Positions 12,675-64,000 of a stretch of 64,000 bases of DNA are shown here, piece after piece. The DNA lies in assembly GCA_030390025.1 (NCBI GenBank), contig CM059432.1, positions 96,908,001-96,972,000 on the forward strand, given 5' to 3'. Position 1 is the first letter of the stretch. Each line of letters opens with the position of its first letter. The translations under genes and the position numbers were made by a program. The notes beneath the pieces were generated by a model. The model ran no database searches and was not told the DNA's origin. It saw only the letters and a program-made list of their open reading frames with translations. This stretch comes from Squalus acanthias. Lineage: Eukaryota.

Positions 12675-12684
12675 TCAATATTCA

Positions 12685-28079: not shown

Positions 28080-28641
28080 TGTTACCGTCCTCCAGATAGC
28101 ACTTTTAATAAGTTTAGCTAGACTGTAACATTCTGGATATTATCAGGGTTCGGAAACCTCCCCCAAAATTCTGCAACTCCTCACCAAAGAGTGTACAGAG
28201 ATTGAGTTTGCGAGTTTGATACAGAAGTCTTATGTGAGACAATTCTAAAAATATATAGATTTATTAAAGAACCGACATGTAATTTACAGTTGGTGAGTCA
28301 ATCGCAACATTAACAGTTCCAAAAAGAAAAAGCTTACAATTCTATTATCAGAGAACCTTACTCTCAAATCTGAACTTCGCTACAGTTTTACAGTTCTTAG
28401 TTTTCTACAGGATATCCACCAAAATCAAATACCTTTGATCCTCGAGGTACAAAGAGTTGGAGACTTACAGAGCCACCTCTGAAGCCGAGAATCGCTTTGC
28501 CCCTTTAAAACGAGTCTACTATCCATTTGAGAGTTCAATATTTATACCCTTTTCCAGTGGTATTTCCTTTAAGGTTTTCTGCTGGTGTAAGCTAATTATC
28601 TCTAGTCATTTTTTTGCTGATCCCTGCAATTCTTACAGTCA
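28080..28641 (-). other. Possible LTR-like element split by the CR1; continues at 41699-41733 and 46600-46896
   Basis: Minus-strand TATAAA (about 28541) and AATAAA (about 28260); flanked by the CR1 TSD; ends and TSD not resolved. Confidence 0.3.
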
Positions 28642-28925
28642 AAGAAACATAGAAGATAGGAGCAGGAGTAGGCCATTCGGCCCCTCGAGCCTGCTCCGCC
28701 ATTCAATGCGATCATGGCTGATCATCCAAATTCAGTACCCTGTCCCTGCTTTCTCCCCATATCCCTTGATCCCCTTAGCCTTAAGAAATATATCTAACTC
28801 CTTCTTGAATATATTTAATGAATTGGACTCAACTGCCTTCTGTGGTAGAGAATTCCACAGATTCACCACTCTCTGGGTGAAGAAATTCCTCCTCATCTCA
28901 GTCCTAAATAGCTTTCCCCTTATCT

Positions 28926-31576: not shown

Positions 31577-32202
31577 GTTTGATTTACACCCTTGATTTCT
31601 CTGCCTTCCACTTTTGCTTTTCTCCTTCCTGTCTTTTGTTTCTATCCTCGCTTCCCTTTCCTCTGTCTCCCTGCACAGGTTCCCAACCCCCTGCCATTTT
31701 AGTTTAAACCCTCCCCAACAGCACTAGCAAACACTCCCCCTAGGACATCGGTCCCGGTCCTGCCCAGGTGCAAACCGTCCAGTTTGTACTGGTCCCACCT
31801 CCCCCAGAACCGGTTCCAATGTCCCAGGAATTTGAATCCCTGCCCCTTGCACCATTCCTCTAGCCACGTAGTCATCTGAAATATCCTTCTATTTCTACTC
31901 TGACTAGTACGTGGCACTGGTAGCAATCCTGAGATTACTACCTTTGAGGTCCTATTTTTTAATTTACCTCCTAACTCCCTATATTCTGCTTTTAGGACCT
32001 CATCCCATTTTTTACCTATATCGTTAGTACCTATATGCACCATGACAACTGGCAGTTCACCCTCCCTCTCCAGAATGCCCTGCAGCCGCTCCGAGACATC
32101 CTTGACCCTTGCACCAGGGAGGCAACATACCATCTCGTTTGCGGCCACAGAAATGCCTATCTATTCCCCTTACAATAGAGTCCCCTATCACTATAGCTCT
32201 CC

Positions 32203-32312
32203 TTTTCCTCTGATCTGCCGCAGCCTGTTGCTGCACTGACCCCTTCCTCTGATCTGCCGCAGCCTGTTGCTGCACTGACCCCTTCCTCTGATCTGCCGCA
32301 GCCTGTTGCTGC
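32203..32312. repeat. 39-bp tandem repeat x about 3 in the pol tail
   Basis: CTTCCTCTGATCTGCCGCAGCCTGTTGCTGCACTGACCC; encodes AATGCGRSEEGVS. Confidence 0.9.
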
Positions 32313-35300
32313 TGCGATGGGGCCGGGCTGTATCTGGGCTGCCTTAACCTTGAGTCTACGCCTTGGGACAGTCTGGGGCCATACCCACATCTTCCTGGGC
32401 TGGGGTTCTCTACTTGACCTACGGGGAGTTGTCAGGGGCAGGGATCCCATGACCGACGGACCGGGTTCCGAGACTTCCATCGGGACGACCTGTGGTTCCA
32501 CCACAGTCGCTGGCTCCGCCTCCGCTGACTCCGCCTCCCTAACCTCGGGGCTTGCAGTTTGTGGCTCCGCCCTGCTCGGCCCAGCAGGCGACCCTTCACT
32601 CACGATCTCTGCCTCCCCCGAGGGCGGGACGTTCAAAGCGGGCGGCTCGGGCTCGGAGGTTCTCACCGTCACTCCCTGTGTTCTCACAGCGGCTGGCTCC
32701 GCCTCCCCTAGCTCCTCCCTCCTGTGTTCGGGACCTGCAGCTTGTGTGTCCACCCTGTGTGGATCTCCATCTGCAGTCCGTGTCCTCCCTATACCTAAAA
32801 TGGGAACGCTCCTTACGTTCCCCAAAACCCACTCGCCTTCATCACCATCCTCATCTGACTCCCATCCCCACAAAAATGCTTCATGATCTTCCAGGATGTC
32901 TCCTCCCCTGATGCAAGCTGCTTTGCCTGCCTGTGTGCCTTGTGGTCCTACCTGGGGCTGCGCTTCCCCACTCGCGGGGTTTACCCCTGTGGTTTTCCCT
33001 TGCGCACCTGGCTTGTACAGTTTGCACTGGTTTACGTGGAACCACTTAGTGCGCCGAGGTACCTTTACGGCGTATACCATGGGACTCGCCTTGTCTACAA
33101 TATTGTAGGGTCCCATATACAGTGGTTCCAGACTCCCTACTCTGGCGTAGTTTCTGACCATGACCTGGTCTCCTACTTCCCACTCCCGCGTTTTGCGGGG
33201 TTCCAGCAACAGGCGATTGCCCTGATGCTGTCTTCCCATGTTCCCAGCCGCCTGCTCATAAACCTGCTTCAGGCGCTCCAAGAGGGTCTGGGCGAACTTG
33301 TCCCTGCTTATCTCTTGGAGCTGACCCTCAGTGAGCACCGGCGCTAGCACATGGGTGGGGGTTCGCATGAGCCTCCCAGTCATCACCTCATGCGGGGAGT
33401 ACCCCGTACTTTTTGACTGACTGGCCCGGACCCCCATGAGGACTAAAGGCAGAACTTCCGCCCATTTTTGGGGCGAGTTCCTAGTCTCTTTCCTCAATTT
33501 CTCCTTCAGGGTCCGGTTCATACGTTCAACAATCCCGGATGACTGGGGATTGTGTGCTACGTGCCACTTCCCTTCAATGCCCAAAAGCATGAGGGTGTTC
33601 TGCATCACCTGGCCGGTGAAATGACTCCCTTGGTCTGACTCCACAAAACGGGGGAGTCCCCACCGCGAGAACACTTCCCGGACCAAGATTTTTGCAGTAC
33701 CCAGTGCCGTAGCTGTTCGACAGGGGAAGGCTTCCACCCATTTGGAAAACACATCCACCAAGACGAGGCAGTATTTATAGCCTCCCTGGGTGGTGGGCAG
33801 GGGTCCTAAATAGTCGATCTGTATCGACTGCCATGGTCCCTCTACCCTTCTTACGTGTCCCATGGGCACTTTCCTTTTCTGGGGGTCTGGGTTGTTTGCA
33901 GCGCACACAAGACAGTTTGCATAGAACTCGCGGACTTGTTCCCTGAGCCCTGGCCACCATCCCGCTTGCTCTACCCGTTGCCAGGTAACCTCGGGCCCGG
34001 GGTGCCCTGCCCCTGGTCCCTCGTGAGCCAACTGGAGGAATTCCCTCCTGTGCTGCTGCGGCACAACCCACTGCTCCTCGCGGAACAGCATGCCTTCCTT
34101 AACTGAGAGGGTTGCCGTACTGTACGGACCCTCTACCTGCTTCCCCTCAGCAATGGTTTTTAGGACTGCTTTTAGGGCGGGATCCTGGGTTTGGACAGTC
34201 TTAAGGTCTAGGGGCAATGCTACCCTGGTGTTCCCGGGATTCCCGTCCCTGCCTTGGATCGCTGCCATGGGTCTGGTCCCATAGGGGTCCCAGAAAATGC
34301 CGTTGCGGGCACCTTCCCTGGCTAGCGCATCCGCCTGCTGGTATGCCCTCCCCACGGGGCTCTGTGGAGGAGTGAGCCTTCACCTTATGGATGAAAATCT
34401 CCCCTTCCTCCCCTACTGCTGCTAGGATCTTTTCCAGCAAGGGCTTCACCGTTAAAGGTCGCCCGTCCGCGGAGGTGTATCCACGGCGGGACCAAATGGC
34501 CAGGTATTCCGTACACGAATTGCAGGTGAACATACTGTCCGAGCAAATCGTGTATGGGGTTGGGAAAATGTCCGGGTGGGTAACAACGTACACCACGGCA
34601 GACAGCTCAGCCTGCTGCGCGCTCATGGTGCTAGGGAGCTTGATCGCCAGGGCAAGGTTTGCCGCAGGGTCATAAACTCCACACCCTGTGAGTCGTTCGC
34701 CAGCCGATACTGTGCTAGACCCATCAACATAAATCTCGCGCCCAGTGGGATGTATCCCGGCCCGCAAACCTATGTTGACGTCCCACACCCCTTCCACCGA
34801 ACATCGGTGGGCTGTACCGGGGTATACCAAATTGGCCGCAAGCCTGGGCTCGCAAAGACCTTTAACTCTAAGATCCATCTGGGAAAGAAGAAGGGTCCAG
34901 CGCGCAATACGCACGCTGCTTACGGTCCCATCTTTAATCCTCCCATCTAGAAGCATCTTAGTTGGTGTGTGATGTGTGAGGAGAGTGATGGGAGAGAGCC
35001 CTGTGAAGATCGCTGATCTTTTCACAGCCCAATGCGTGGCTAAAAGGTGCCTTTCGCAATTGGAGAAACTTCTCTCCACATCCGTTAACACCCTGGATGA
35101 ATAGACAACCGGCCTCAGCTTGCCGTGACGCTCTTGGAGCAGCACAGCGCTCAAGCTGTCTCCGCTGGCAGCTACCTCCAGGAAAAACTCCTTCCCCCCA
35201 TCTATGGCCCCTAAGGCTGGCGCGGTCTGCAGATCCCTTTTTAACTTCTCGAAGGCTGCTTGGCAGCCCTCGTCCCAAGACCACTCCACTCCCTTATGGA

Positions 35301-36684
35301 GGAGTCGGAGGAGCGGCGCCGCTGTGGCCGCATAGTCTTCGATAAAATCCCTGCAGTAACCGGTCAGTCCCAAGAAGGACCTCACACCCCTTATGTTGTT
35401 GGGAATCGGTAACTCTTGCACCGACTCCCTCCTAGCTTTGTCTATGGCTCTTTCCCCAGCGCAAATGGTCAGTCCCAGGAATTTTACTTCCTGCTGACCG
35501 ATACGTGCTTTCTTAGGATTTATTTTAAAACCCTTTCTCGCTAGCAGCTCCAATAACTCGTCCAGCAGTGGTCCATGCTCCTCCCTTGAATCCGTAAATA
35601 GGAGCAAATCATCCACGTACTGCACTATCTGATTGGGCTGACTAAACTCCTTTAAACTTCCTGCCATACACTGATGGAAAATACTGGGGCTATTGTGGAA
35701 ACCCTGTGGCAGACAGTTCCATGTGTACTGTTGTCCTTTGAAAGTAAAGGCAAACTTGTACTGGTCCTCTCGCCTCAGCGGGATGGACCAAAAACCGTTC
35801 GAGATATCCAACACCGTGAACGTGGTCGCGGACGCTGGGATACTCCCTATTAGGTCAGCAACTGCTGCTACCGTGGGCGCGCAGGCGGGAATGTTACTGT
35901 TAAGGACTCTGTAGTCCACCGTGGCTCTCCACGAATTATCCGGCTTCCTAACCGGCCATAATGGGGAGTTCACGTGTGTGGCTATCGGCCTCAACACGCC
36001 CTGCTGCACCAAGGAGGACATTGCTGTCTCCATATCGGGTTCTGCTTCTTTGGGGAAGTTATACTGTTTTTGGGGCCGGGTCATGGGGTCCCCATCTACG
36101 CTGACCTCAAACCCGGCAACCCTCCCACAATCGTGCTTGTGGGTTGCAAACGCGTGCATATTATCTGACACGTACGTTTGCATGTCCGTTGGGACATCTG
36201 CGACCATAAGCCCGAGGTCGTAGCCTCCGGATGGCTGCACGGTACACAGGACCCCTGTTTCCTCCTCCCCCGGAATCACTACTACCTCGCCTTTTTCACT
36301 CTTAGCCCCCCAAAGACAGTGATTTCTGAGGTCCACGAGGATCCCGTGTCCTGATAGAAGATCGGACCCGAGGATACCTCTTCCACCCCCCTCCTGCCAT
36401 TCCATCAGTATGCACTTCCACTTGAGGTGAAGTGCTCCCAAACGAATGGATAGCGGAAGGGAGAACGCGCCAGCCTGTTCTTTTCCCGTGAACCCCGCTA
36501 ATGTGAATGGGACCTTGGTAGATAGCGGCGAGTCAAAAGGGCTATCTGTATGGATTATGGTGCAAGAAGCTCCCGTGTCCAACAAATAACTACCCTTCTG
36601 TTTCTCTACCTCCATCTCCACCAAAGGTCGCTTCCACGCATCATAGCTGAGCGGACACAGGTAGACGGGCTGCGCGGGCTCTAG
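32203..36684 (-). pseudogene. pol: Pol (protease, RT, tether, RNase H, integrase, long acidic/Pro-rich tail); single 1-nt frameshift at about 34343
   Basis: LLDTGA; NSPLWPVRKPD..WRATVDYR; LDISNGF; LPQGFHNSP; YVDD; RNase H YVDGS/AQQAEL/SDS/HKVKAH; IN H..GH..C..C, QIDY, SDQG, GIVERMN, GPY; removing base 34343 restores GEGNQQAD. Confidence 0.92.
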
Positions 36685-38493
36685 TCATGGGGTACGATTA
36701 GACGGTCCTGCGGCACCTATGGGGCCGGTAGCAACCGCCACCTTTCCATGTGCACTCAATAAACTGCGCATGGCTCCCAACACTACTTCGAGGTCGTCGG
36801 GAGGGGTGGGTGCACTAGCTTCCCTTGCAGGGACAGGCGTCTGGGCTCGGGCTGCGGGAATTTTATCCCTGGAATCCTTCCAAGGGTTCCTGCAATTCTT
36901 GCGCCAGTGCCCTGTCTTCCCACACCCGTAACAAGCATTACTTGCCTGCGGGGCGCGATTCCCCTCCTGATGCCACTCCCTTTGATACGGGGCTGCGGGT
37001 CGTACCTCATGTACTTTTCCCTTAAGGGGACGTGTTCCCATACCCCTTATATTGCGATATCCTAACGTGAGTCGATTCAAGACCGACTCTTCCGTAATGT
37101 TGGGGTCATTGGGATCAAACCATGCTTTTGCCTGCTCTCTGACGGCTGGTAAACTGTTGGCTACTATGCACCTAAGCCAATGATTTAAACCGGCGCCGTC
37201 CATATCGTCGCGCTCTAGCGCACCTAGACAGCTGCGCTGATATACTGGCCACAGCCTGTCGGCAAAAACCTTCGGGGGTTCTCCCTCCATCTGCACTGTC
37301 TGTCCCACTCTAGCGAACGGACCTTCATCGTCCGCCCCCAACACTTCCAGGACCTCATTCTTTAATGCCTCATAAGTCTTGGTTCCCCTCTTGCTCTCTC
37401 CCGAGAGACACTGAAGGATTGAACTGCCTAACGAAAACAACAGCATTTTTGCTGTTTCCCCATCATCGCAGCCGTTAATGGCTGCGGTTTGCTCAACTTC
37501 TCTGAAATGTACGGAAGGGTCGTCTAACTCGGTCAGCTTCCGTACATGACTTATCATAACTCTCAGCTGGTGTGAGCTGTGAGGCAACACAAGCTGGCCG
37601 AGGAGATCCCCTGGTTCCCCCCCACCGTTTCTGTTTGGGCCCCTTTTTATACCCGTTACTGGATACAACGGTCCCTTTTCCACTTCTTTCTCAATGGGCT
37701 CTTTCGTTTCTTCCACTACTTCCTCCCTTACCCAGGTTTCCGAATAGCTGGGTGGCGCGGAGGGCGCAGTGGCTAATACTTCCTCTGCTTTACTTGGTGG
37801 GGACTTCTGAAACTCCTCTTTTACTAGCGGCTGGTGTGCTGACGGACTGATAAGGCACACCATGCCATGCGCTTTGTTTACGGCCCTTTTGAGGTGCTCT
37901 ATCTCTTTTTGGCAGGCGCTATGATCGGCTCCCTGAAACTTATCCTCAAGGGCCAACTTATATGCCGCCCTAACCCCCGTTAAGCTCTCTTCCTGAGTTC
38001 TTATCTGGGCAGCTTGGCGGGCACATCGTTCCTTTAATCTGCCCTCATTTAACTTTGCCTCAGTGACCTGGCACTCGAGGTATTCTATCCTTGTTTTATG
38101 GTGACTGGAGATTTCCTGGCGTTCTTGGTGCAGCGCACTTAAATTCCTAATGAGCAACTCCCCTCCAGAGACCTTCTCATCCATTTCTCCCTCTAAATGA
38201 CTGATTCGAGCTGTTAGCGCTGTAATGACCTGGTTTGAAATCTGGACCTGCCTTTTGTAACACATTAGCCAGACTGCTTTCTCGAGTGTCTTTTTATGTT
38301 CTTTACTATCTGTCCACCTTTCGGCTGCCTCTAGTGGACTTTTATCCGCTAACAATTCACTTATCCATTTCTTAGTTAGATTAACCTTTCCGAACACATA
38401 ATCTGCTATCTTTTCCTGCATAACATTTCGTACAGTCATACCAAAGTCTAACACACTACCCTCTCGCTGCCAGTGTCCTGCCGCGGTCGCCAT
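36685..38493 (-). CDS. gag: Gag-like protein (602 aa) with coiled-coil-like region and one CCHC zinc knuckle
   Basis: Uninterrupted ORF from ATG 38493; CYGCGKTGHWRKNC; PSAPPSY (PSAP plus PPxY late-domain-like). Confidence 0.88.
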   Translation of the reverse strand: MATAAGHWQREGSVLDFGMTVRNVMQEKIADYVFGKVNLTKKWISELLADKSPLEAAERWTDSKEHKKTLEKAVWLMCYKRQVQISNQVITALTARISHLEGEMDEKVSGGELLIRNLSALHQERQEISSHHKTRIEYLECQVTEAKLNEGRLKERCARQAAQIRTQEESLTGVRAAYKLALEDKFQGADHSACQKEIEHLKRAVNKAHGMVCLISPSAHQPLVKEEFQKSPPSKAEEVLATAPSAPPSYSETWVREEVVEETKEPIEKEVEKGPLYPVTGIKRGPNRNGGGEPGDLLGQLVLPHSSHQLRVMISHVRKLTELDDPSVHFREVEQTAAINGCDDGETAKMLLFSLGSSILQCLSGESKRGTKTYEALKNEVLEVLGADDEGPFARVGQTVQMEGEPPKVFADRLWPVYQRSCLGALERDDMDGAGLNHWLRCIVANSLPAVREQAKAWFDPNDPNITEESVLNRLTLGYRNIRGMGTRPLKGKVHEVRPAAPYQREWHQEGNRAPQASNACYGCGKTGHWRKNCRNPWKDSRDKIPAARAQTPVPAREASAPTPPDDLEVVLGAMRSLLSAHGKVAVATGPIGAAGPSNRTP

Positions 38494-38707
38494 TTTCTGT
38501 AAGGGTTTGCGTGCGTGTCTCTCAGCCTGTGAGATTCGCGCGGCTCTGTGCAGCCTGTATGTCAGTGCGGGTTTCGGCCTTGTTGCCTGTTCTGGTCTCC
38601 AGCCAGTCTGGGAGCACTAGACACACCTGTGAGTGGTTCGAATCACTCGCCCTTACGGTTCTAGACACTGGACTTAGATGCGAGAGCAGTAATGGAGATG
38701 AAACTCA

Positions 38708-40172
38708 TGTAGACTCGGTTGAATGGTACGAAATGGAAAATCTTTATTGCATAATATTCAAGATTACGAAATACATGTCATAAGCACAGATTAATGACAG
38801 TACAATCTTACACGCAGTTATGTAGCTAATTCTAGGGAAACGAGGAACGAACGACACACCGTAAATGGGGGCACACATTACAAGTATCCTTAATACTTAA
38901 GCCCTCCCCTATCAATATCTGTCCTAGCTAGATTCGTAGGATTCGAGACTCATGCTCACCACTCGTGATAACTCGGAGAAATTCCGAGTAGCTGATCGGA
39001 TGTTTTCACCGCAGCACCCACGTGTCGATCAGGGGGTCTCCTGGCCCCACTTGTTTACTTGCTTCTGCTCCGGCTAGCAGGCTGGAACGTCTGTTGTTAC
39101 GAAGATCTCTGTTGGTTGGTTTCACGTACCAGTCAACACTTAAGAGAATAATCTCTCGGTGTCCGTCATGAGGATCTGCCCTGATGGGTTTCACAGATCA
39201 GTCAATATCTCAAAGGAGAATCTTTCGGGGTCCGTTCTTTAAAGTTCAAAGAAGTCTTCCTGGCAAGGAGAAATGTCTATTCGACCTACAGGCGCGGTCG
39301 GGGCTTACTGACCGTGGCGATAAGTATGATCTTCGTCTCTTCTCATCTCATCTCATCTCTTCTCGGGCCTTTGGTTCCGATGCCGGTTACCAACACAGAT
39401 CTTCGTGACACAACACGAGGTAGATCCGAACAGATCACAAAGTTCAACAGTCTTTTAAAAGAGACACCAGGCAAACAGGAACAAGTCGGCGAGTCAAGAA
39501 CACAGGAGCAGCCACGAGGATGAACACCAGCAAGATAAGAGAAAGATGGATGGTTGGAGCTTGTAATTATAGTACAAAATCTTCCGTTTCCCGCCCAACC
39601 TTAATGCCTTTTCTTTTGTTTGGGTTTGGCGCTCAAATGTCTTGTATAGGTGATCTCCGTTTTTAATGGGTTTCGGGGCTACTCGTAAATGTCTGAGTAC
39701 CTGTTAATATTTCTCCCATTGTTAAATCGGTCGGTGTTCTCCCTGGAGGGGTTTTGGGGCTTCCAAGTGTCTTGTGTAACTACCCGCTAACGGCTCTCTC
39801 ATCGTAGAGTCGTTGGGATTTTACATATTAATGTCTTTGGATGGGCCCTTGATTACTTGGTACAATAGCCTTTATTCGTACCCGGGAGACCGATTTCAGT
39901 ATCTATGTGTATACTGCAAACCCATGATGTCTTGTGTATTATCTTCAATGTGCTGAATCTTAATCGATCTTGCACAAATGTTTATTGGAACGCCATCTTG
40001 TCTGTCTGTCGAAAAGTCTAGAATGTTCCGCCACGAGGTGCGGCGGCCATTTTACAGGCTGCTTGTGTCCACTTTGAAAACCTGACAGCATTCTGCTGAA
40101 ATAAAGCTGTTTGAACGAAACTATGTGTTTTTCTCCTTATTTATAAAATCGCGATATATTGCGAATTCTACA
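38708..40172 (-). repeat. 5' LTR, about 1465 bp
   Basis: Starts TGTAGA at 40172 exactly where CR1 homology stops; ends TCTACA at 38708; AATAAA at 38748-38743; inner end inferred because there is no second LTR. Confidence 0.72.
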
Positions 40173-40739
40173 GTGACCAATTCATTAAACGTGATATCCA
40201 TCATGTCCTCAGCATCGCGAATGCTCCAGTATGCATCCATTTGCAGCTCCAGCGCCGCAAAGCGGTCTGCAATAGCTGCAGCTGGATACACTTCCTGCAC
40301 ACATGGTCGTCAGGGACACAGGAAGTGTCCCTGATTTCCCACATCGCGCAGGAGGAGCATACCACAGGGCCAAGCTGTGCTGCCATGACTTACCCTTTAA
40401 TTATTTTAATTTAAATTAAATCAAATCAATACCAGCAATTACACTTCAATTAAATGTTATACTCAAGGGCCCTTGTTTACTAGCACTCTCCGCTACACAA
40501 CAGAGACCTTAGAAACGAAAACCACAAAATTAAGACCTTCTAAACTTGATAAATTATTAACCTTAACTGTCAAACTATAGAGTAGTATAAATACTCACCT
40601 GGCCATACTCACCCAATCAGCTGCTTCCTCTTGCCTGCGTCACTTTTTGAATCATGACGTGGCTCTGAAATGCTGCCGCCGATCTGTGAGATTGGTAAGT
40701 CTTTGAAAAAAAGCCCGTGAAAGTGAGTTTAAACACTCA

Positions 40740-43700
40740 GGGGGAGAAATTCAGTATCGCCCCATTTGGGGTGCAATTATCGGCCGGGCGCAAAGATTAG
40801 CGCCTGGCGCTAATTATCGCCACCGACTGCAAACTTGACTTTTATCGCCCCTGGAGGTGATTGCAGCGCTATATCAGGCGCTTCACACCTGTCTTAAGGC
40901 GCAAAGGCCGAGAAGCGAGGCGTTACCTCAGAGCGCTGGCGAAGCTCATGTAATGTCAGTCAGCAATGGAACACACACACAATGGCACGGGCCAGTTCTT
41001 AAAGGGGATGGTTAATCTTGCTTTCCATCCACATCCTGCTCATTGCAGCCTTGAATCTCGGCCTGGAGAGACTTGCACATCAAATGTGCTGGAAAGAACA
41101 ATGGAGAGTACCAGGCAAAGAGCTCAGAGTGCAGCCCCCACAGTCTCTGCTAAATCGATACAAGGAATGGCAAATCAAAATGAACCTGCAAAGTGCTGCT
41201 CAGTACCCAAAACTCCTTCACACAACGTTGAATCTCTCCAGAAGTCTCTCCCTCTCTCTCTCAGAATGCGTAGTTCAAAAATGGCACCAACAATAAAAGG
41301 CAGGAAGCGGTCACCTTTAAATAGCGCTCCCCCTTTCCCTTCATGACTGCAGAACGCTCCCCTCAACCTGTCGTTGCTAGCATCAGGCGGTAAGGCAGGG
41401 GGTGCCACTCAATATCCGCTCCGGGGCGATACCGGGGCGTTGCGCACTCGAGTGACGTCACGATCTGCCGGCGCAGGAGATCGTGGCGGTAGTGTTTAGC
41501 GCCGCCGCAAAATGTCTAGTTAATTTCGCGAGCGGCGCAAACTTCGCCGCGCCTGGGCGCTAGATGCTTTGCGCCCCATTAGCGCCCTCTTAAGGTGCTA
41601 ACGGGAGGCGCAACCAACTGAATTTTTTCCCCTCACGGTCCTCTCCTGTTGCTCCCGATACCGGACTTTGAAAAAAAGCCCGCAAAAGTGAGTTTAAATA
41701 CAGTCACCTCAGCTGGTAGCATTACAGAATTATGGGGGAGAAATTCAGTATCGCCCCATTTGGGGCGCAATTATCGGCCGGGCGCAAAGATTAGCGCCTG
41801 GCGCTAATTATCGCCACCGACTGCAAACTTGCGTTTATCGCCCCTGGAGGTGATTGGAGTGCTAAATCAGGCACTTCACACCTGTCTTAAGGCGCAAAGG
41901 CCGAGGAGCGAGGTGCTACCTCAGAGCGCTGGTGAAGCTCATGTAATGTCAGTCAGCAATGGAACATACACACAATGGCACGGGCCAGTTCTTAAAGGGG
42001 ATGGTTAATCTTGCTTTCCATCCACATCCTGCTCATTGCAGCCTTGAATCTCGGCCTGGAGAGACTTGCACATCAAATGTGCTGGAAAGAACAATGGAGA
42101 GTACCAGGCAAAGAGCTCAGAGTGCAGCCCCCACAGTCTCTGCTAAATCGATACAAGGAATGGCAAATCAAAATGAACCTGCAAAGTGCTGCTCAGTACC
42201 CAAAACTCCTTCACACAACGTTGAATCTCTCCAGAAGTCTCTCCCTCTCTCTCTCAGAATGCGTAGTTCAAAAATGGCACCAACAATAAAAGGCAGGAAG
42301 CGGTCACCTTTAAATAGCGCTCCCCCTTTCCCTTCATGACTGCAGAACGCTCCCCTCAACCTGTCGTTGCTAGCGTCAGGCGGTAAGGCAGGGGGTGCCA
42401 CTCAATATCCGCTCCGGGGCGATACCGGGGCGTTGCGCACTCGAGTGACGTCACGATCTGCTGGCGCAGGAGATCGTGGCGGTAGTGTTTAGCGCCGCCG
42501 CAAAATGTCTAGTTAATTTCGCGAGCGGCGCAAACTTCGCCGCGCCTGGGCGCTAGATGCTTTGCGCCCCATTAGCGCCCTCTTAAGGTGCTAACGGGAG
42601 GCGCAACCAACTGAATTTTTTCCCCTCACGGTCCTCTCCTGTTGCTCCCGATACCGGACTTTGAAAAAAAGCCCGCAAAAGTGAGTTTAAATACAGTCAC
42701 CTCAGCTGGTAGCATTACAGAATTATGGGGGAGAAATTCAGTATCGCCCCATTTGGGGCGCAATTATCGGCCGGGCGCAAAGATTAGCGCCTGGCGCTAA
42801 TTATCGCCACCGACTGCAAACTTGCGTTTATCGCCCCTGGAGGTGATTGGAGTGCTAAATCAGGCACTTCACACCTGTCTTAAGGCGCAAAGGCCGAGGA
42901 GCGAGGTGCTACCTCAGAGCGCTGGTGAAGCTCATTTAATGTCAGTCAGCAATGGAACATACACACAATGGCACGGGCCAGTTCTTAAAGGGGATGGTTA
43001 ATCTTGCTTTCCATCCACATCCTGCTCATTGCAGCCTTGAATCTCGGCCTGGAGAGACTTGCACATCAAATGTGCTGGAAAGAACAATGGAGAGTACCAG
43101 GCAAAGAGCTCAGAGTGCAGCCCCCACAGTCTCTGCTAAATCGATACAAGGAATGGCAAATCAAAATGAACCTGCAAAGTGCTGCTCAGTACCCAAAACT
43201 CCTTCACACAACGTTGAATCTCTCCAGAAGTCTCTCCCTCTCTCTCTCAGAATGCGTAGTTCAAAAATGGCACCAACAATAAAAGGCAGGAAGCGGTCAC
43301 CTTTAAATAGCGCTCCCCCTTCCCCTTCATGACTGCAGAACGCTCCCCTCAACCTGTCGTTGCTAGCGTCAGGCGGTAAGGCAGGGGGTGCCACTCAATA
43401 TCCGCTCCGGGGCGATACCGGGGCGTTGCGCACTCGAGTGACGTCACGATCTGCCGGCGCAGGAGATCGTGGCGGTAGTGTTTAGCGCCGCCGCAAAATG
43501 TCTAGTTAATTTCGCGAGCGGCGCAAACTTCGCCGCGCCTGGGCGCTAGATGCTTTGCGCCCCATTAGCGCCCTCTTAAGGTGCTAACGGGAGGCGCAAC
43601 CAACTGAATTTTTTCCCCTCACGGTCCTCTCCTGTTGCTCCCGATACCGGACTTTGAAAAAAAGCCCGCAAAAGTGAGTTTAAATACAGTCACCTCAGCT

Positions 43701-46596
43701 GGTAGCATTACAGAATTATGGGGGAGAAATTCAGTATCGCCCCATTTGGGGCGCAATTATCGGCCGGGCGCAAAGATTAGCGCCTGGCGCTAATTATCGC
43801 CACCGACTGCAAACTTGCGTTTATCGCCCCTGGAGGTGATTGGAGTGCTAAATCAGGCACTTCACACCTGTCTTAAGGCGCAAAGGCCGAGGAGCGAGGT
43901 GCTACCTCAGAGCGCTGGTGAAGCTCATGTAATGTCAGTCAGCAATGGAACATACACACAATGGCACGGGCCAGTTCTTAAAGGGGATGGTTAATCTTGC
44001 TTTCCATCCACATCCTGCTCATTGCAGCCTTGAATCTCGGCCTGGAGAGACTTGCACATCAAATGTGCTGGAAAGAACAATGGAGAGTACCAGGCAAAGA
44101 GCTCAGAGTGCAGCCCCCACAGTCTCTGCTAAATCGATACAAGGAATGGCAAATCAAAATGAACCTGCAAAGTGCTGCTCAGTACCCAAAACTCCTTCAC
44201 ACAACGTTGAATCTCTCCAGAAGTCTCTCCCTCTCTCTCTCAGAATGCGTAGTTCAAAAATGGCACCAACAATAAAAGGCAGGAAGCGGTCACCTTTAAA
44301 TAGCGCTCCCCCTTTCCCTTCATGACTGCAGAACGCTCCCCTCAACCTGTCGTTGCTAGCGTCAGGCGGTAAGGCAGGGGGTGCCACTCAATATCCGCTC
44401 CGGGGCGATACCGGGGCGTTGCGCACTCGAGTGACGTCAAGATCTGCTGGCGCAGGAGATCGTGGCGGTAGTGTTTAGCGCCGCCGCAAAATGTCTAGTT
44501 AATTTCGCGAGCGGCGCAAACTTCGCCGCGCCTGGGCGCTAGATGCTTTGCGCCCCATTAGCGCCCTCTTAAGGTGCTAACGGGAGGCGCAACCAACTGA
44601 ATTTTTTCCCCTCACGGTCCTCTCCTGTTGCTCCCGATACCGGACTTTGAAAAAAAGCCCGCAAAAGTGAGTTTAAATACAGTCACCTCAGCTGGTAGCA
44701 TTACAGAATTATGGGGGAGAAATTCAGTATCGCCCCATTTGGGGCGCAATTATCGGCCGGGCGCAAAGATTAGCGCCTGGCGCTAATTATCGCCACCGAC
44801 TGCAAACTTGCGTTTATCGCCCCTGGAGGTGATTGGAGTGCTAAATCAGGCACTTCACACCTGTCTTAAGGCGCAAAGGCCGAGGAGCGAGGTGCTACCT
44901 CAGAGCGCTGGTGAAGCTCATTTAATGTCAGTCAGCAATGGAACATACACACAATGGCACGGGCCAGTTCTTAAAGGGGATGGTTAATCTTGCTTTCCAT
45001 CCACATCCTGCTCATTGCAGCCTTGAATCTCGGCCTGGAGAGACTTGCACATCAAATGTGCTGGAAAGAACAATGGAGAGTACCAGGCAAAGAGCTCAGA
45101 GTGCAGCCCCCACAGTCTCTGCTAAATCGATACAAGGAATGGCAAATCAAAATGAACCTGCAAAGTGCTGCTCAGTACCCAAAACTCCTTCACACAACGT
45201 TGAATCTCTCCAGAAGTCTCTCCCTCTCTCTCTCAGAATGCGTAGTTCAAAAATGGCACCAACAATAAAAGGCAGGAAGCGGTCACCTTTAAATAGCGCT
45301 CCCCCTTTCCCTTCATGACTGCAGAACGCTCCCCTCAACCTGTCGTTGCTAGCGTCAGGCGGTAAGGCAGGGGGTGCCACTCAATATCCGCTCCGGGGCG
45401 ATACCGGGGCGTTGCGCACTCGAGTGACGTCACGATCTGCCGGCGCAGGAGATCGTGGCGGTAGTGTTTAGCGCCGCCGCAAAATGTCTAGTTAATTTCG
45501 CGAGCGGCGCAAACTTCGCCGCGCCTGGGCGCTAGATGCTTTGCGCCCCATTAGCGCCCTCTTAAGGTGCTAACGGGAGGCGCAACCAACTGAATTTTTT
45601 CCCCTCACGGTCCTCTCCTGTTGCTCCCGATACCGGACTTTGAAAAAAAGCCCGCAAAAGTGAGTTTAAATACAGTCACCTCAGCTGGTAGCATTACAGA
45701 ATTATGGGCGAGAAATTCAGTATCGCCCCATTTGGGGCGCAATTATCGGCCGGGCGCAAAGATTAGCGCCTGGCGCTAATTATCGCCACCGACTGCAAAC
45801 TTGCGTTTATCGCCCCTGGAGGTGATTGGAGTGCTAAATCAGGCACTTCACACCTGTCTTAAGGCGCAAAGGCCGAGGAGCGAGGTGCTACCTCAGAGCG
45901 CTGGTGAAGCTCATGTAATGTCAGTCAGCAATGGAACATACACACAATGGCACGGGCCAGTTCTTAAAGGGGATGGTTAATCTTGTTCTCCATCCACATC
46001 CTGCTCATTGCATCCTTGAATCTCTGCCTGGAGTGACCTGCACATCAAATCTGCTGGAAAGAACAATGGAGAGTACCAGGCAAAGAGCTCAGAGTGCAGG
46101 ACCAAAGTCTCTTCTAAATCAATACAAGGAATGGCAAATCAAAATGAACCTGCAAAGTGCTGCTCAGTACCCAAAACTCCTTCACACAGCGTTGAATCTC
46201 TCCAGAAGTCTCTCCCTCTCTCTCTCAGAATGCGTAGTTCAAAAATGGCACCAACAATAAGAGGCAGGAAGCGGTCACCTTTAAATAGCACTCCCCCTTT
46301 CCCTTCATGACTGCAGAACGCTCCCCTCAACCTGTCGTTGCTTGCGTCAGGCGGTTAGGCAGGGGGCGCCACTCAATATCCGCTCCGGGGCGATACCGGG
46401 GCGTTGCGCACTCGAGTGACGTCACGATCTGCCGGCGCAGGAGATTGTGGCGGTAGTGTTTAGCGCCGCCGCAAAATGTCTAGTTAATTTCGTGAGCGGC
46501 GCAAACATGTCCGCGCCTGGGCGCTAGATGATTTGCGCCCCATTAGTGCCCTCTTAAGGCGCTAACGGGAGGCGCAACCAACTAAATTTTTCCCCC
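40740..46596 (+). repeat. Tandem array of six Harbinger MITEs, 993-bp period (about 893-bp MITE + about 100-bp spacer)
   Basis: MITE starts at 40740, 41734, 42727, 43720, 44713, 45706; ORF track repeats every 993 bp; TIR GGGGGAGAAATTCAGT. Confidence 0.97.
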
Positions 46597-48047
46597 TATG
46601 TCTCTTCTCTAGGTGTTCTAAGTTTACCATAAAAAACGGTGTAATGGCAGGTGCGTTTTACTTGATGTCATTTTTACGAAGGCAGATGTTTGTGCTTTTT
46701 TACGAAGTGTAAATTAGAACCCCTTAACCAGGGTGAACCATTGTCTTGTTCCAAAAGATTCAGACTAACGGAGCCTTTAACCTTCTGTTTCAATAAGGTT
46801 ATTGATTCAGTGTCAACAACTATCTTATCTCTAAAGCCAGAATGCTATCACAGCTTTTTCATAGTTAGGTTTCTAGATTTCCAGACCCGGTTTGTCATGT
46901 TTTAATAAGGCCAGAATTCTTTCATGGAATGGTGTATTTTTCTGAAGAGGTTATATGGCTTATTCCTTCACAGCAGGAGAGCTTGGGGGAGCAGGGGGAA
47001 GCAATCCTGCACCTCCTGGGGTGGAAGTAGTGCTGTAAGGGCAGTTACCTTTTCCCTGAAACTGTCCTCACCTCCCTTGAGTTGCTGGGTTTCCCAAGAC
47101 CTGGGAATCCCGGCTGGCCAGGGTTAAATCTGTAAGGGAAGTTAAATGTCAGGCTCCCAGCCTTATTATAATATTTAAATGTCAATCCACCTCCTGGGAG
47201 CCGGTTCGCTGCCCTCCCCCTGTTCTGCCTCCGTTAAACCCTGAAGTGGGTGGGTTGAAGGCGGGTTGAGGTCGGGTTTGAAATTTTAAAATTTTTTACA
47301 TCTCACGTGACCCCAACCCACCTGTTTTGGGTGGTTAAAATTCACCCCATTGAGTCTATAGCACAGAAACAGGCCATTCGTGCCCAACTGGTCAATGCCA
47401 GCGTTTATGTTCCACAGGAGATCCTTCCCACCCCTCTTCATCTGAACCCTGTTTAACTAAGTTACAGTCTGACACTATGTCACACATACAATAACCAAGG
47501 CGGGAATTTTCTGGCTGCCATGTGTGCCGGATTGGAGGCAGGTCGGGAATGAAAGTTGAAATAAATTGGAGCGGATCGGGAACTCGCTGTCATCCCACCT
47601 CCTCGCGCCTTTTACTTGGGCGCGTTTGCCTGCGCAGCCTCGACCTGAACGGCAAAGGCGGCCGACCTAATTTTGATAATTATTAGGTTGTTGTCAGACT
47701 GTTAAGCGTCCTTTTAACCCTACCTTTGGAATTTCACTGCATGACCACGGGAATCAAGCAGCTTGGGAACCACGACTATGAATCTGAGGCGGAAGTTCAG
47801 TCGCCATTGATGGAACTCATTACTGCACAGCATGGAAAGCACAATAAATAATCCCACCTGATACCTGGTTACTTTCCCAAGGCAGATGCTTTTGCTGAGT
47901 GCATTGTGAGCACAGATTTAGGTTTCTAGAGGTTGCAAGTGTTTTCAGCAAATTCGGGAACCACTGTCACCTCATTGTTACAACCTTTCACACCATTGAC
48001 AGATTGCTTCTTTCATCTCTACTTGACCTGCCATCTATTACATCAGC

Positions 48048-49275
48048 ATGGGTGCCGTTTATACTGTCTCACCTTGGTCCTCAGAATCGGACCACGATGA
48101 GCCCCAACACCAGCAACACCAGGCACACCAGCAGCAGTAACAACAACACCACCAACCTTCTCCTCAATGACCTGATGCTCCACAGGGCAGAGGACATCAG
48201 CACAGGGCTGCACCGAGCCAGAGGCAATACCCCCAACACAGGGTATGCAGGCAGAGATGAGCTTCCTCAACATGACTGAGCAGCAGTGCCAAAGGAGGCT
48301 CCGGCTATCGCACCAGGTCATCACAGGCATTTGTAGCTTGCTGGAGCAAGACCTGCAGCCCAGAGGACCTGGTGGACATGCCTTACCAGTGGCTGTCAAA
48401 GTCACCAGCACCCTCAACTTCTTTGCTTCAGGCTCCTTCCAGGGATCTGCAGCAGACATTTGCGGCATCTCACAGTCGGCCACCCACAGATGCATTACAT
48501 AGGTCACCGATGCCCTGTTTGATAAGTCAGCCAATTATATCAACTTTGCCACTGATGAAGCCAGTGTTACTCAGTGGGCACTCGCCTTTTCCGCTCTGGC
48601 TGGCTCCCCACGGGTGCAGGGCATCATTGACTGCACACATGTGGCCATCAGGGCACCACATCATCACCCTTTGTCAGCTGCAAGGGCTTCCACTCCCTCA
48701 ATGTGCAACTCATCTGCAAGCATAGGAAAATCATCATGCATGTGTGCTTTCCTGGCAGCTGTCATGACTCTTTCGTCCTGCGCCAGTCCACCCTCCCTCA
48801 GCTCTTCGCACCTCCAAACAGACTTTCCGGTTGGCTGCTTGGACACAAGGGCTATCTAATGAAGACGTGGCTCATGACACCCTTGAGGAGACCAAGTCCT
48901 GAGGTCGAGGAGAGTTATAATGGAAGCCACATGTGGACCAGATGTGTCATGGAGCAGACAATAGGCATGCTGAAAATGCACTTCAGATGCATTGACAGAT
49001 CTGGAGGAGCCCTTCAGTACACACCAGCCAGGGTCTCCAGAATCATCGTGGTCTGCTGCACCCTGCACAACATAGTGCAGCAGCGAGGATTAACGCTGCA
49101 TGAGGAGCAAGGCTCTGAGCAAACAGCCTCTTCAGAGAAAGAGGAGGAGGAAAAGCATCAGCTGGAAGACGAGGAGGAGGAGCAGGAGGAACCTGAGGTC
49201 CAGATCCCACCAGCACCCGAGCACATTGCTGCCCGGGAGACCAGAGATGGTCTCATCATGGCCAGATTTTCTTAA
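48048..49275 (+). pseudogene. Harbinger transposase pseudogene
   Basis: [52 protein letters not shown]; stops and frameshifts. Confidence 0.9.
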
Positions 49276-49550
49276 CTTCAGGCATTACACCCATATAGCT
49301 GCCATATGCTGCACCAGGTTCCCACCACCCTAGAGCAATACCATAAAGCATCCCTACAATGACCAAGCCATTCCTTTCACACTGACCTCCATTGCTGGAG
49401 GTAACGTTATGTCTCACCATTCACTCCAACTCACTAAGCCACTTCCAAAGTTGCAGACAAAAGTGGTGAAAATAAATAGTTTTATCTGTGACATAAGAGT
49501 AATGGAAGCTTAACAGTTATTAAAACATCTAAGTGCTTACACTTGTGCAT

Positions 49551-51430
49551 CTACTTGTGTGTCATCTTTCTCTTATGCGTGCTTCTACGAGGTGCTACCC
49601 CTATGGCTTCAGCAGAGGTAGAGGCAGCCTGCTCACTTCCCTGCTGTGACTGCTTAGACACTTTTGGCGGATGTCCTCTGGGTCTTGGAGCCTGTGATGG
49701 TTCCGCCAAAGTCTGCTCCTCGTGTGACTGTGCAGGAGCAGACTCGGCCATCACGATCCCAGGAGGCATGTTGGGCTCTGACTGAGGGGGATGCAACAGG
49801 GGAGAAGTGTGAGCACTTTGAGAGGAGCCCCCACTTCCATGTCCCCTCTCATTGTCATCTCTCTCATGGGCTACCCGCACTTCCTTGTGAGCAAGGAGCT
49901 GGACAGCACCTTGATGCACCGCACTGGGGCCATGAGGACCCAAGTCTACATTGACATCCCTCCTAGAGAGGCGGTCTATGAGCCTCTGCCATCTATTCCC
50001 CATAGATAGCATGTGCTCATGTGAGAAGTCCATTAGCTGCTCATGCAGGTGGCCATCCTTTCATTGGAAGAGCCTACAGTCACCATTGCCTGTGACACAG
50101 TGGTGCTCTTGTTGGAGATGGACTCCTCCACTCTCTGCACATTTGCAGACTTCATGGTCGCAAAACCTGTCAAAGCCTCCTGCACTTCTTCCTGCACGTC
50201 CTGGATTGCCCTCTTTCTGGATGGCCCCCGAGCTCAGCTTTTGCATGCAGCTGAGCAGAGCTGGGAGCATCCTGCACCCTCCGGCGAGGATTCCACTGCT
50301 GTCCCTGTCTCTATCATCTCCTCCTGCTCACTTGTGAGTTGTGACACACCAGGTGACAACACTACTCTATCTCGCGTGGGACCCACCGAGGTGTGGGTAT
50401 CTGTGCTGGTGCTGGGTGCGCTTATGTCTGCTGACAGTGCACCCTTAGAGGCTGGAGGCTCCAATGAGGAGTTGCCTTCCTCTTCCTCCTGGACAGTGGA
50501 GGTGGGTGGGGGGAGGGGGGTGCTCTTGATGGACTTGTGGGAGAGTAAAGAGATGAGTTAGATATGTCATATGAAGAATGGGTACAGATACCATTATGCA
50601 CATGATGAACATTCACTAGCTGCTGACATCAGTCCCCACATGAGTGACTGCTGTATGCCATGTGGCTGTATGAGATGTAATTATGTCACCAGTTGCTGAG
50701 ATGTCCCCCTCTCTCCATCTCCCACCACCAGCTGTTCTGCAACACCTGAGACCTCCAGGGCGACCTCCTCTGCTGCAGTTAAGGTGGAAATGATGGAGGG
50801 CCACCTCCGGTTCTCTCCCTCTCTCTCTTATTGTGGGCTCTCTTCTCCTGCAAGGAGGGAAAGAAGAGAAGTTTGAGTGAGGGTGATGGAATGAGTGTAA
50901 GGAATGGATGGGTTACATCTGTAGAGGGTGACTATGAGGGAGTCTGCTGGCCATGCTAAATGGCCTTCTTGTGGGTGTTATTTGGTATGATTGCATTAGG
51001 ATGAGGGTGAGTGTGAGGGGTGGCTAGTCAGCTGGGGATGTGATAATGTAGATAGAGAGAGAGTGATGGGTGGACGTGCAAGGTATGTTGGTGTGAGTAA
51101 TGATGTGCAGGAGTAGGCTTGGGAAGGCAGAGCGATGGGGATGTGATGAGAGGCACAGCAGGATGAAGTTAGGTGTGGCTTTGTACTCACCTTTCCTGAT
51201 CTAATGAGATTATTGAAGTGCTTCAGGCACTGCACCTAGGTCTTCCTCACAACATCCCTGCTGTTCACCTCCTCTGCTATCTCCAGCCAGGCTCTTTTAG
51301 TCTGCTGAGGAGGTCTCTTGCATCCATCAAAAGGGAAGAGGACCTCCCTGCGTGCTCACACTCCCTCTACAAGCATATGGAGGGAGTCTGCTGAGAACCT
51401 GGGTGCAGCCCTCTGCCTCTGTGCAGTCAT
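49551..51430 (-). pseudogene. Harbinger Myb/SANT gene, spliced, decayed
   Basis: MTAQRQRAAPRFSADSL..QCLKHFNNLIRSGK then GTGAGT donor at about 51190; acceptor at about 50848; C-terminus PRPRG..AASTSAEA..APRRSTHKRK. Confidence 0.75.
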
Positions 51431-51805
51431 GTTTTCAAGGCTTAGCAAGACCCAAATGCTTTAATACAGTGCCTGCACACTCTTAGCTGAACCTTCAAAT
51501 GCAATGTGGCCAAGGCACCATTAAATATCCCGGCTGGAAATGAGTCATTGATGACATCATCAGACCCGCATCATTTAATAGGGCTGGGTAACGCGCAGGG
51601 CTGCCTTAATAGGCGCCATTAAGGGAAAGTCGCTCTAAGAAGCGGCATGAAATGAGGAACGGGGTCCTGACCCGCCACGCCAACCGTCCGCGCACGACCC
51701 GCCCAGATAAACAAAATTCTGGCCCAACAATCAGTATGGCAGCAAACTCAGCTCTAGTTATCCAGCCTTCATGTGTATCCTGTTCTTCTATGAGATAAAT
51801 TAACT

Positions 51806-55063: not shown

Positions 55064-55816
55064 GGGAGAGAAATTCGGTATAGCCCTATTTGGGGCGCTA
55101 ATACTTTGAAAGTTGAAAAACTGGCGCCAGGCGCTAATCATTCTCGCCGCCCACGAAATTCACTTTTAGCGCTCCAAGAAGGAAGTGGGGCGCTAAATCA
55201 AGTGCTGAACACATCTCTTAGGGCGCTAAAGTCCGAGAGCGGGGCGGTAGCGGCAGAGCGTTAAACAATTTTGAGCGCATTGTGAATGGCACTCTTTCAT
55301 CACAGAGACTGCTTCCCTCGCTTAAAGGGAAGGGCCAATGATGCTGCACAAGCTAGTTGTCATCAGTTCTGTTTTGCAAGGCGGCCTGGGCGACTGCCAT
55401 TACAGCCCCAAACACTCACAAAGTGCAGGGCTTGGACATCTTGCACCAATGAAACAGTAAAAACTTTGCGCAGGCTTCAGACTGGTGCAAATAATAAAGG
55501 TTGTGCTAGCTGAAAACCATTCCTTTTAATTAACGCTCCCGAAGCGGCCAGCCGCGTTCACAACGCCTCCTCTTGCTGGCATTGTCGGTGTGAGGCGATA
55601 AAGCAGGGGGCGCAAGTGAATTTTCCATCCGGGGCGATAACAGGTGCTGCGTATTTTATGATGCCACGATCTGGGAGGCGCTAGAGGCCCAGGAGCTAAG
55701 AGTTAGCGCCAGCACTAAACCGGCACTGAAGTTCGCGGGTGTCGCTGCATTCACCGCGCCCGGATGCTAAACCATTAGCGCCCCTACGAGGCGCTAACAT
55801 ACCAAATTTCTAGCCC
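55064..55816. mobile_element. Diverged Harbinger MITE related to the 893-bp family
   Basis: TIRs GGGAGAGAAATT / AATTTCTAGCCC; ATA/GTA flanks; GGCGCTAA repeats. Confidence 0.8.
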
Positions 55817-63582: not shown

Positions 63583-64000
63583 GGGGTAAAAATTAGGTCG
63601 CGCCCCATTTGGGGCGCAAATATCGTCTGGACGCAAATATTAGCGCCTGGCGCTAATTATCGGCACTGACTGGAAACTTCACTTTTACCGCCCCGGGAGG
63701 TGAGTGGAGCGCTAAATCAGGCGCTGCACACCTGTCTTAAGGCGCAAAGGCCAAGGAGTGAGGCGCTACCTCAGAGCGCTGGCGAAGCTCATGTAATGTC
63801 AGTCAGCAATGGAACACACACACTATGGCACGGGCCAGTTCTTAAAGGGGATGGTTAATCTTGCTTTCCATCCACATCCTGTTCATTGCAGCCTTGAATC
63901 TCGGCCTGGAGAGACTTGCACATCAAATGTGCTGGAAAGAACAATGGAGAGTACCAGGCAAAGAGCTCAGAGTGCAGCTCCCACAGTCTCTGCTAAATCG
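63583..64000 (+). mobile_element. 893-bp-family Harbinger MITE running off the window end
   Basis: TTA then GGGGTAAAAATTAGGTCGCGCCCCATTTGGGGCG; interior matches the array units. Confidence 0.92.

Follow-up and report, generated by a model that had tools for sequence, protein, structure and literature searches.

A five-unit tandem array of chimeric non-autonomous Harbinger elements in Squalus acanthias, probably derived from two neighboring insertions

A 64,000-nucleotide (nt) stretch of Squalus acanthias DNA (assembly GCA_030390025.1, contig CM059432.1, positions 96,908,001–96,972,000 of the forward strand; the whole stretch is termed the window) contains six copies of one non-autonomous Harbinger element (M1–M6), all in direct orientation and 891–893 bp in length. 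The first copy (M1, element A) and the last (M6, element B) are separate insertions, and the four copies between them display B alleles at the left and A alleles at the right. This is probably due to transposable element (TE)-mediated multi-copy tandem amplification, i.e. one homology-directed exchange between A and B that was followed by at least two further steps.

Layout of the array

The distance from the start of one element to the start of the next is 994 bp once and 993 bp in the four cases thereafter. The five spacers are identical in sequence and each is 101 bp in length, which includes a triplet at both ends, TCA first and TAT last. The elements are thus flanked by TCA/TCA in M1, by TAT/TCA in M2–M5 and by TAT/TAT in M6. 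The initial annotation of this DNA had described the middle units as preceded by TAT and followed by TCA, and the same triplets are found here. The window has no N. Tandem Repeats Finder is silent on the array because its period limit of 500 is below the 993-bp unit. Contigs from four of 24 public runs were also aligned, to positions 45505–47004 only; these are X1 and X3 (one sample), X5 and X19, and runs X11–X18, which have small word shares, were left out.

The features are as follows (TSD stands for target site duplication and TIR for terminal inverted repeat; R is an older repeat described below).

40737–40739: left TSD of A, TCA; without the insertion, the 5′ ends of two further CR1 copies of the window read AATACTCACTG here
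40740–41632, + strand: M1 = element A, 893 bp, 16-bp TIRs with 14/16 matched
41633–41733: spacer 1, composed of TCA (the TSD on the right of A), 63 bp from the 5′ end of CR1, the CR1 TSD TACAGTCA (41699–41706), 24 bp of repeat R and TAT (left TSD of B)
41734–42625, + strand: M2, B-left/A-right chimera, 892 bp
42626–42726: spacer 2, same as spacer 1
42727–43618, + strand: M3, chimera, 892 bp
43619–43719: spacer 3
43720–44611, + strand: M4, chimera, 892 bp
44612–44712: spacer 4
44713–45604, + strand: M5, chimera, 892 bp
45605–45705: spacer 5, with an exact match to an X1 contig at 45577–45669
45706–46596, + strand: M6 = element B, 891 bp, 95.2% identity to A
46597–46599: TAT, the TSD on the right of B; where R paralogs are empty, the two sides are joined by one TAT
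40975–41020 (M1), 41968–42013, 42961–43006, 43954–43999 and 44947–44992 (M2–M5), 45940–45985 (M6): 46-bp switch block in which A and B are identical
40998–45962: amplified array proper, 5 × 993-bp unit U, cut at 40998, 41991, 42984, 43977 and 44970, with 6 variable columns

The switch between A and B alleles

Of 893 alignment columns, 43 distinguish M1 from M6 (95.2% identity), and M2–M5 agree with each other at all 43. At the left part of M2–M5 the allele is that of M6 (B) at 12 of 12 sites, which span element positions 33–235; at the right part it is that of M1 (A) at 29 of 30 sites, positions 282–889. The exceptions to a pure chimera are position 4, where a C is private to M6, and position 643, where an A that represents a CpG change is private to M1. 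The switch interval is at positions 236–281, a 46-bp block where M1 and M6 are the same throughout (40975–41020 in M1). There is no insertion or deletion at the switch and the chimeras are of full length. The longest perfect A/B block is now 78 bp.

The allele pattern consists of 5 runs, and as few were found in none of 200,000 shuffles; the maximum chi-square for the switch, 34.0, was attained in none of 20,000. A B-left/A-right model leaves 3–4 mismatches per middle unit, compared with 14–15 for pure A, 31–32 for pure B and 14–15 for the reverse chimera, and the best cut for the B-left/A-right model lies anywhere in 235–281. Polarity was assigned with two other family copies in the window (O1 and O2) and an autonomous-type relative, with 1–3 of these outgroups covering each site. 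By this criterion 7 derived bases in the left part of the chimeras are also found in B, and 5 in the right part are also found in A. Since derived bases are common to the chimeras and each parent, the pattern is one of descent from both and not of decay of the edge units.

It had been proposed from the sequence that the left ~240 bp of the middle units are of B type and the right of A type, with one crossover about 240–280 bp inside the element. Multiple alignment and phasing of single nucleotide polymorphisms in the six units bear this out, the six allele motifs quoted in support are all present, each on the side given, and the switch is placed at 236–281.

The element is a non-autonomous PIF/Harbinger

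The family members used for comparison are the following.

15782–19964, + strand: autonomous-type Harbinger relative with a Myb/SANT open reading frame (ORF) on the + strand and DDE_Tnp_4 on the − strand; used as outgroup and for classification
9491–10383, − strand: O1, solo full-length family copy, TSD TAA, perfect 16-bp TIRs; outgroup
63583–64000, + strand: O2, family copy with TTA before its start, cut by the end of the window; outgroup

The TIRs are 16 bp in length and are matched at 16/16 positions in O1, 14/16 in M1 and M2 and 13/16 in M6. Three-bp TSDs are present on both sides of A (TCA), B (TAT) and O1 (TAA), and TTA precedes O2. The consensus TSD of Harbinger elements is TAA/TTA, from which TCA and TAT deviate. 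Positions 1–369 and 494–893 of the array element have 80% and 79% identity, respectively, to the ends of the 4.2-kb element at 15782–19964. This larger element encodes both PF13359 DDE_Tnp_4 (E-value = 4e-37) and PF13873 Myb/SANT (E-value = 6e-9), and a two-protein layout of DDE transposase and Myb/SANT protein defines PIF/Harbinger (PMC8616336, PMC9921582). The 130-amino acid (aa) stop-to-stop frame of the array element has no Pfam match. The family is abundant: 10,167–15,767 contigs per run align to the 1.5-kb stretch, 60% of which is the element, and the summed depth peaks over the element; four young insertions of the family are found in the window. The TIRs, the 3-bp TSDs, the ends of a two-gene element, the lack of coding capacity and the high copy number together indicate that the array element is a non-autonomous PIF/Harbinger. 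The narrow-sense term MITE, short for miniature inverted-repeat transposable element, under which it was initially annotated, was discarded, as 891–893 bp exceeds the MITE size of about 400 bp (PMC9659126); non-autonomous Harbinger is the better name.

A and B have nine subterminal bases in common compared with O1 and the autonomous relative (positions 17, 18, 38, 44, 745, 753, 809, 815 and 825), which places them in one subfamily. A common donor or a local hop is possible. Derived sites number 32 in B and 11 in A (P = 0.002, with 1–3 outgroups per site). B may be older than A, but this is not claimed firmly because of the number of outgroups per site and because the clustered changes of B may come from a minor subfamily.

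With respect to the insertion sites, a target motif A-N-N-Y-[TSD]-R-N-N-T is matched at 3 of its 4 positions by the DNA around A (40733–40739/41633–41639), around B (45699–45705/46597–46603) and around O1, 9 of 12 in total. Position −1 is Y and position +4 is T in all three.

Two independent insertions, the CR1 host and repeat R

The sequences that surround A and B are as follows.

28634–28641: 8-bp TSD TACAGTCA at the far side of the CR1; the left half of R is just before it and matches the consensus of loose contig ends left of 45671 (X3, X19)
28642–40736, − strand: CR1-type long interspersed nuclear element (LINE), host of A; its 3′ tail is near 28642, and it has ORF2 and ORF1 (GDSL esterase domain) in broken form and a 5′ untranslated region (UTR); a Gypsy-like interruption is at ~32203–40172
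46600–47004: continuation of repeat R, an older multi-copy repeat with a summed contig depth of 2×10^4 to 4×10^5 in all four runs

The LINE at 28642–40736 is presumably of the CR1 family, judging by its domain layout; its GDSL esterase domain is PF13472, on 31702–32160. The 5′ ends of two other CR1 copies, at 21290–21424 and 14660–14870, continue through the A insertion site, where TCA is present just once. At the site of B, contigs of X1, X5 and X19 pass from one side to the other with one TAT between them, and further contigs have CG or G there. These contigs are empty paralogs of the older repeat R. A reading of the empty joints as the orthologous allele was rejected, as they are R paralogs with depths up to 1,588. 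Neither the ancestral allele with two elements nor the reciprocal deletion allele turned up among the contigs listed for 45505–47004. Because empty-site paralogs confirm both TCA and TAT, A and B are independent insertions. Thus the earlier placement of A in the CR1 5′ UTR with a TCA duplication holds, as does the TAT duplication assigned to B.

The left half of R was recovered from loose contig ends left of 45671 and has a single match in the window, at 28614–28633; 1 of 100 shuffles also matched. Six-frame translation gave no identity for R. Directly beyond this match is TACAGTCA at 28634–28641 and then the CR1 3′ tail, and in 5 of 5 spacers the CR1 5′ end is followed by the same octamer. 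As a CR1 TSD the sequence is found once at 28634 and once per spacer; the 8-mer is also present at five other places in the window. One CR1 thus inserted into R and created an 8-bp TSD; the CR1 5′ end and this TSD were afterwards multiplied five times. Since the TSD is present once at 28634 and once in each spacer, the spacer was single-copy before amplification. The proposal that the CR1 5′ end and its flank were co-amplified as a spacer is in agreement with the five identical 101-bp sequences, each with the CR1 TSD. B sits in R, at a distance of 24 bp from the CR1 TSD on its far side from the CR1. The order of insertion is R, then CR1, then A in CR1; B may have come before or after CR1 and A.

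The CR1 5′ UTR has a tandem motif (73 bp × 2.2 at 14685–14845), and related stretches are found at 21348–21424, at 40701–40736 and in each spacer. A is inserted inside one such motif.

The repeat unit and its copy history

When cut at the switch, the array reads as A-left, five units U and B-right, where U is composed of A-right, spacer and B-left and is 993 bp in length. The total length is 4,965 bp and the mean pairwise divergence of the units is 0.28%. At the six variable columns the states are TACCGG in U1, TGCTGT in U2, CGCCGG in U3, TGATGT in U4 and TGCCCG in U5. All five units are therefore distinct, more than the two that a diploid two-element locus could supply, and the array holds three haplotypes of the B-left part and five of the A-right part.

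One site separates U2 from U4, and two sites separate U3 from U5. Two derived bases are common to U2 and U4, a T at 42462/44448 and a T at 42936/44922, which are 474 bp apart; one is a CpG transition and the other a transversion. When the array is matched with itself, mismatches number 14 of 3,972 at a shift of one unit, 5 of 2,979 at two units, 7 of 1,986 at three and 2 of 993 at four. The likeness of U2 and U4 implies a later two-unit duplication, as judged from two bases. The simplest history, also drawn from these two bases, would be an increase from one to two units by A/B exchange, then to three (U-U*-U) and then to five by a 1,986-bp duplication. A higher-order two-unit register of this kind, here resting on the two derived bases, is a satellite-like trait.

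Contig evidence, satellite status and age

The contig statements below refer to 32 pieces of 56,467. Contig depth is not a copy number, and the right flank is repetitive and thus gives no single-copy baseline. A 93-base contig of X1 spans the A-right/spacer junction (45577–45669) with no differences and a depth of 24.5; the sequence has five occurrences in the window. The X1 sample therefore contains the A-right/spacer junction. Among the 32 pieces listed, X3, X5 and X19 have no exact contig over the junction, to which no weight is given at 32 of 56,467. Its depth is among the low values of the pieces listed (8.8–57.5) and far below the family sums of 10^5–10^6, which argues against a large satellite in that one sample.

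The TIRs are kept throughout 40740–46596, and any left end together with a downstream right end could in principle mobilize as a composite that carries a spacer. Given the low depth of the X1 junction contig, there is no sign of such mobilization at scale.

An X19 joint that skips 993 bp (one contig, with 21 letters on its short side) was rejected, as it is a family contig that fits two places. Several X19 contigs (organism K) omit ~215–223 bp of the element, from 45904–45910 to 46125–46134 in B, and this suggests a shorter family variant in that organism.

The units are head-to-tail monomers (5 × 993 bp), as in satellite DNA. Classification as a satellite by array size was rejected, however, since five units and 4,965 bp compare with the >10 copies used in PMC5932611. 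The locus had been described as the birth of a satellite. With five units and a low junction depth in one sample this term goes too far, and the locus is better termed a short array. No host gene is found among the examined ORFs of ≥100 aa in this repeat-saturated window.

In the epaulette shark the mutation rate is 7 × 10^-10 per base per generation and the diversity is 0.002 (PMC10587355). With this rate the 2–4 differences over 1,986 bp translate to about 0.7–1.4 million generations (95% range ~0.09–3.7 million). At the epaulette shark diversity, ~4 differences per 1,986 bp are expected from exchange between homologues alone with zero elapsed time. No age is claimed for the array because standing diversity alone gives the same differences, which speak neither for nor against a process caught in the act.

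Proposed mechanism and alternatives

The starting state was a CR1 in R, with B in R 24 bp past the CR1 TSD and A in the CR1 5′ UTR, the gap between A and B being 101 bp. As the first step, an exchange in the 46-bp block would have joined the upstream part of B to the downstream part of A, to give A-S-[B/A]-S-B (S, spacer) with two perfect 993-bp units. A perfect 993-bp repeat would be a far better substrate than the A/B pair of 95% identity, and later exchanges would have taken place inside U; because these copied the breakpoint, all four chimeras would have the same one. The third step would lead through a U-U*-U stage to U-U*-U-U*-U by a two-unit duplication of 1,986 bp. The locus is most likely neutral, and a neutral array of such size would be expected to fluctuate and often to collapse.

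The initial annotation attributed the whole 993-bp array to unequal exchange between two neighboring MITEs. The two neighboring insertions and the chimeras stand, but one such exchange yields only two units and five need at least two more steps. An A/B exchange at the 46-bp block likewise stands, although the sequence does not separate a crossover from a template switch or re-integration of a circle.

Several points weigh against a history of exchange and stepwise growth. The switch block is 46 bp and the longest A/B block is 78 bp, and both are below 100 bp, the mammalian figure for non-allelic homologous recombination (NAHR). Because of this, the first step may have been a template switch or annealing instead of a classical crossover. 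For the later steps the figure of >100 bp of identity is satisfied by the 993-bp unit, with its 0.28% mean divergence. Further, the public-run evidence consists of contigs, and none of the 32 pieces listed crosses the switch; run X1 may also be the source sample and hence not independent. Positions 4 and 643 do not fit a pure chimera, and a later mutation or exchange with a homologue is needed. A weak point is that the variant-dense middle of B has no exact match among the contigs listed, as contigs drop rare variants.

The two-unit signature is equally given by concatenated haplotypes of a three-unit allele, and the chimera and a short array may thus be real with the copy number inflated, i.e. 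U-U*-U haplotypes merged to five units in the assembly. This is unlikely, yet it is the best of the alternatives. The small differences between U2 and U4 and between U3 and U5 are of the size expected between haplotypes, ~4 per 1,986 bp at a diversity of 0.002 (the epaulette shark value, which may not be that of the host), and the contig depth is not convertible to a copy number that could settle the matter. A genuine 3+3 unequal crossover yields the identical pattern, however, and 64 kb of dense repeats free of N suggests long reads that would be able to span 5.9 kb.

A single burst is improbable to a greater degree. Here A/B recombination on one molecule would have released a circle of 993 bp. 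Rolling-circle amplification and re-integration of this circle would have followed, and the likeness of U2 and U4 would be due to later gene conversion. Such a circle would equal U in structure, with the same single breakpoint, and rolling-circle amplification is a proposed route to TE tandems (PMC5932611). The two-unit register is nevertheless explained by stepwise exchange without conversion, whereas under the burst two units that are not neighbors must in addition have shared a conversion tract of 475 bp or more (columns 472 to 946 of the unit).

Very little probability is given to a first duplication that was non-homologous or driven by transposase at the element ends (A-S-A-S-B), with B alleles entering the left 235 bp by conversion. 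The TIRs are intact at most ends, but this route takes two events for what one exchange achieves; the sole new junction lies inside the element in homologous sequence, and none of the element ends has a footprint or indel. Double insertion at one site and junctions made by transposase were rejected on the junction anatomy.

A pure artefact, with nothing but A-spacer-B in the animal and a loop made by the assembler between the elements, is hardly credible: the data are contigs without a spanning read, but the five distinct units (three B-left and five A-right haplotypes) would amount to several errors of the consensus, of which two would recur in one and the same pair of units, and a loop through a 46-bp match would need overlaps shorter than those that long-read assemblies presumably use.

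Comparison with known systems

The closest parallel to the proposed A/B exchange and stepwise amplification is found among human TE-mediated rearrangements (TEMRs) that give multi-copy variants. Balachandran et al. (2022; PMC9675761) describe four human higher-order amplifications flanked by homologous TEs, where the first rearrangement facilitates further copy gains. The same source gives >100 bp of perfect identity as the mammalian figure for classical NAHR, and most human TE rearrangements of the homology type have short junction homology. As in the human Alu and LINE-1 cases, direct homologous TEs, a full-length chimera, breakpoint homology and amplification of the intervening DNA are seen here. 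The sequence features of a TEMR are found in the array, i.e. a breakpoint at homologous positions, a full-length chimeric TE and, in the assembly, five spacer copies. Unlike the human cases as described, the pair here is of class II (Harbinger), only ~100 bp lie between the two elements, the TE makes up 90% of the unit and internal variants record the dimer step.

Formation of a tandem repeat by unequal exchange of homologous TEs is also the model of Wong and Choo and the NAHR model (as reviewed in PMC12628747 and PMC9659126). In contrast to these proposals, as they are reviewed, the parents, TSDs, breakpoint and spacer are all preserved here, yet there are only five units. McGurk and Barbash (2018; PMC5932611) likewise have two insertions as substrate and expansion by unequal exchange (hobo with 13–19 copies; R1 and Bari1 arrays). 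The junctions in that paper have a single TSD, whereas here two TSDs surround 95 bp and the chimeras come from two distinguishable parents. According to theory cited there, neutral arrays finally contract to one unit.

In Xstir of Xenopus (Hikosaka and Kawahara, 2004, as summarized in PMC12628747), two nearby MITEs also gave rise to hybrids and tandem arrays. The Xstir model, in that summary, has a stem-loop between the two elements from which the loop is excised, and internal MITE sequence is amplified; at this locus the elements repeat in direct orientation, and the intervening DNA is kept and amplified. The 993-bp unit, which is composed of Harbinger, CR1 5′ end and repeat R, resembles the composite monomers of the "TE graveyard" (PMC12628747, section 5). 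Those satellites are abundant and are made of degraded TE pieces, unlike the five units of young sequence at one place described here. The maize repeats CRM1TR and CRM4TR (Sharma et al. 2013, PMC3648361) are similar in that they are confined to a locus and derive wholly from TE sequence; they differ in their origin from retrotransposon long terminal repeat (LTR)/UTR sequence, for which gene conversion and intrastrand deletions are proposed by the authors. Maize centromeres also contain chimeric elements whose TSDs are mismatched (PMC4806543). A literature search, with most subscription papers and supplements outside its coverage, gave no report of an array built in this way from a pair of MITE or Harbinger elements together with their spacer, or of one from a shark.

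Other elements in the window

The Harbinger at 15782–19964 has a 410-aa stop-to-stop transposase frame (18292–19524, − strand) and a Myb/SANT frame (16123–16581, + strand). It also displays an 87-bp tandem duplication (17075–17251) and a 20-bp duplication (19559–19598). No matching 3-bp TSD is present at the ends taken for this element. An older Harbinger-type element at 47937–51627 has DDE_Tnp_4 at 48631–49272, with inverted relatives of 74–81% identity at 61308–62566, and positions 55064–55784 are a 66–71% relative of the array element.

The Gypsy-like LTR retrotransposon at 32203–40172 (− strand) is located within ORF1 of the host CR1 and has gag-like, protease/reverse transcriptase (RT)/RNase H and integrase-like frames. 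A second LTR for 38601–40172 of this element was not found, and ~224 bp of CR1 are absent at the site compared with the CR1 copy at 19967–21424. Together these suggest deletion of one end of the Gypsy-like element.

A further RT-encoding element, at 2603–7230, has a 699-aa RVT_1 frame at 4296–6395. Its downstream part is repeated at 97% identity (2603–3951 and 5675–7230), with a 214-bp insert in one copy. We take its layout to be Penelope-like.

Significance

The rearrangement is of a known kind that is unusually cleanly recorded at this locus; it represents no new mechanism, function or satellite, and it is not known to affect a host gene. If confirmed by long reads, it would be a teaching-grade case of the inter-element route, where both parents, three TSDs, the breakpoint and the dimer step are readable. 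It would illustrate a one-step origin of a composite monomer from several repeat families, which bears on the origin of composite satellite monomers, an open question (PMC12628747, section 5). The combination of mismatched TSDs and an allele switch is also a search pattern for a genome-wide census.

Four young insertions in ~60 kb would translate to ~0.3% of copies with a neighbor in the same orientation within 100 bp, as extrapolated from one window. More tentatively, the array may be real at five units, still segregating and one of many in the genome, with close pairs of elements forming a standing source of composite monomers, some of which become satellites. If this is the case, each locus would carry its own parents and breakpoint, and the rates at which composite satellites are born, grow and collapse by the inter-element route could be read from a genome-wide count of A-S-(B/A)n-S-B loci.

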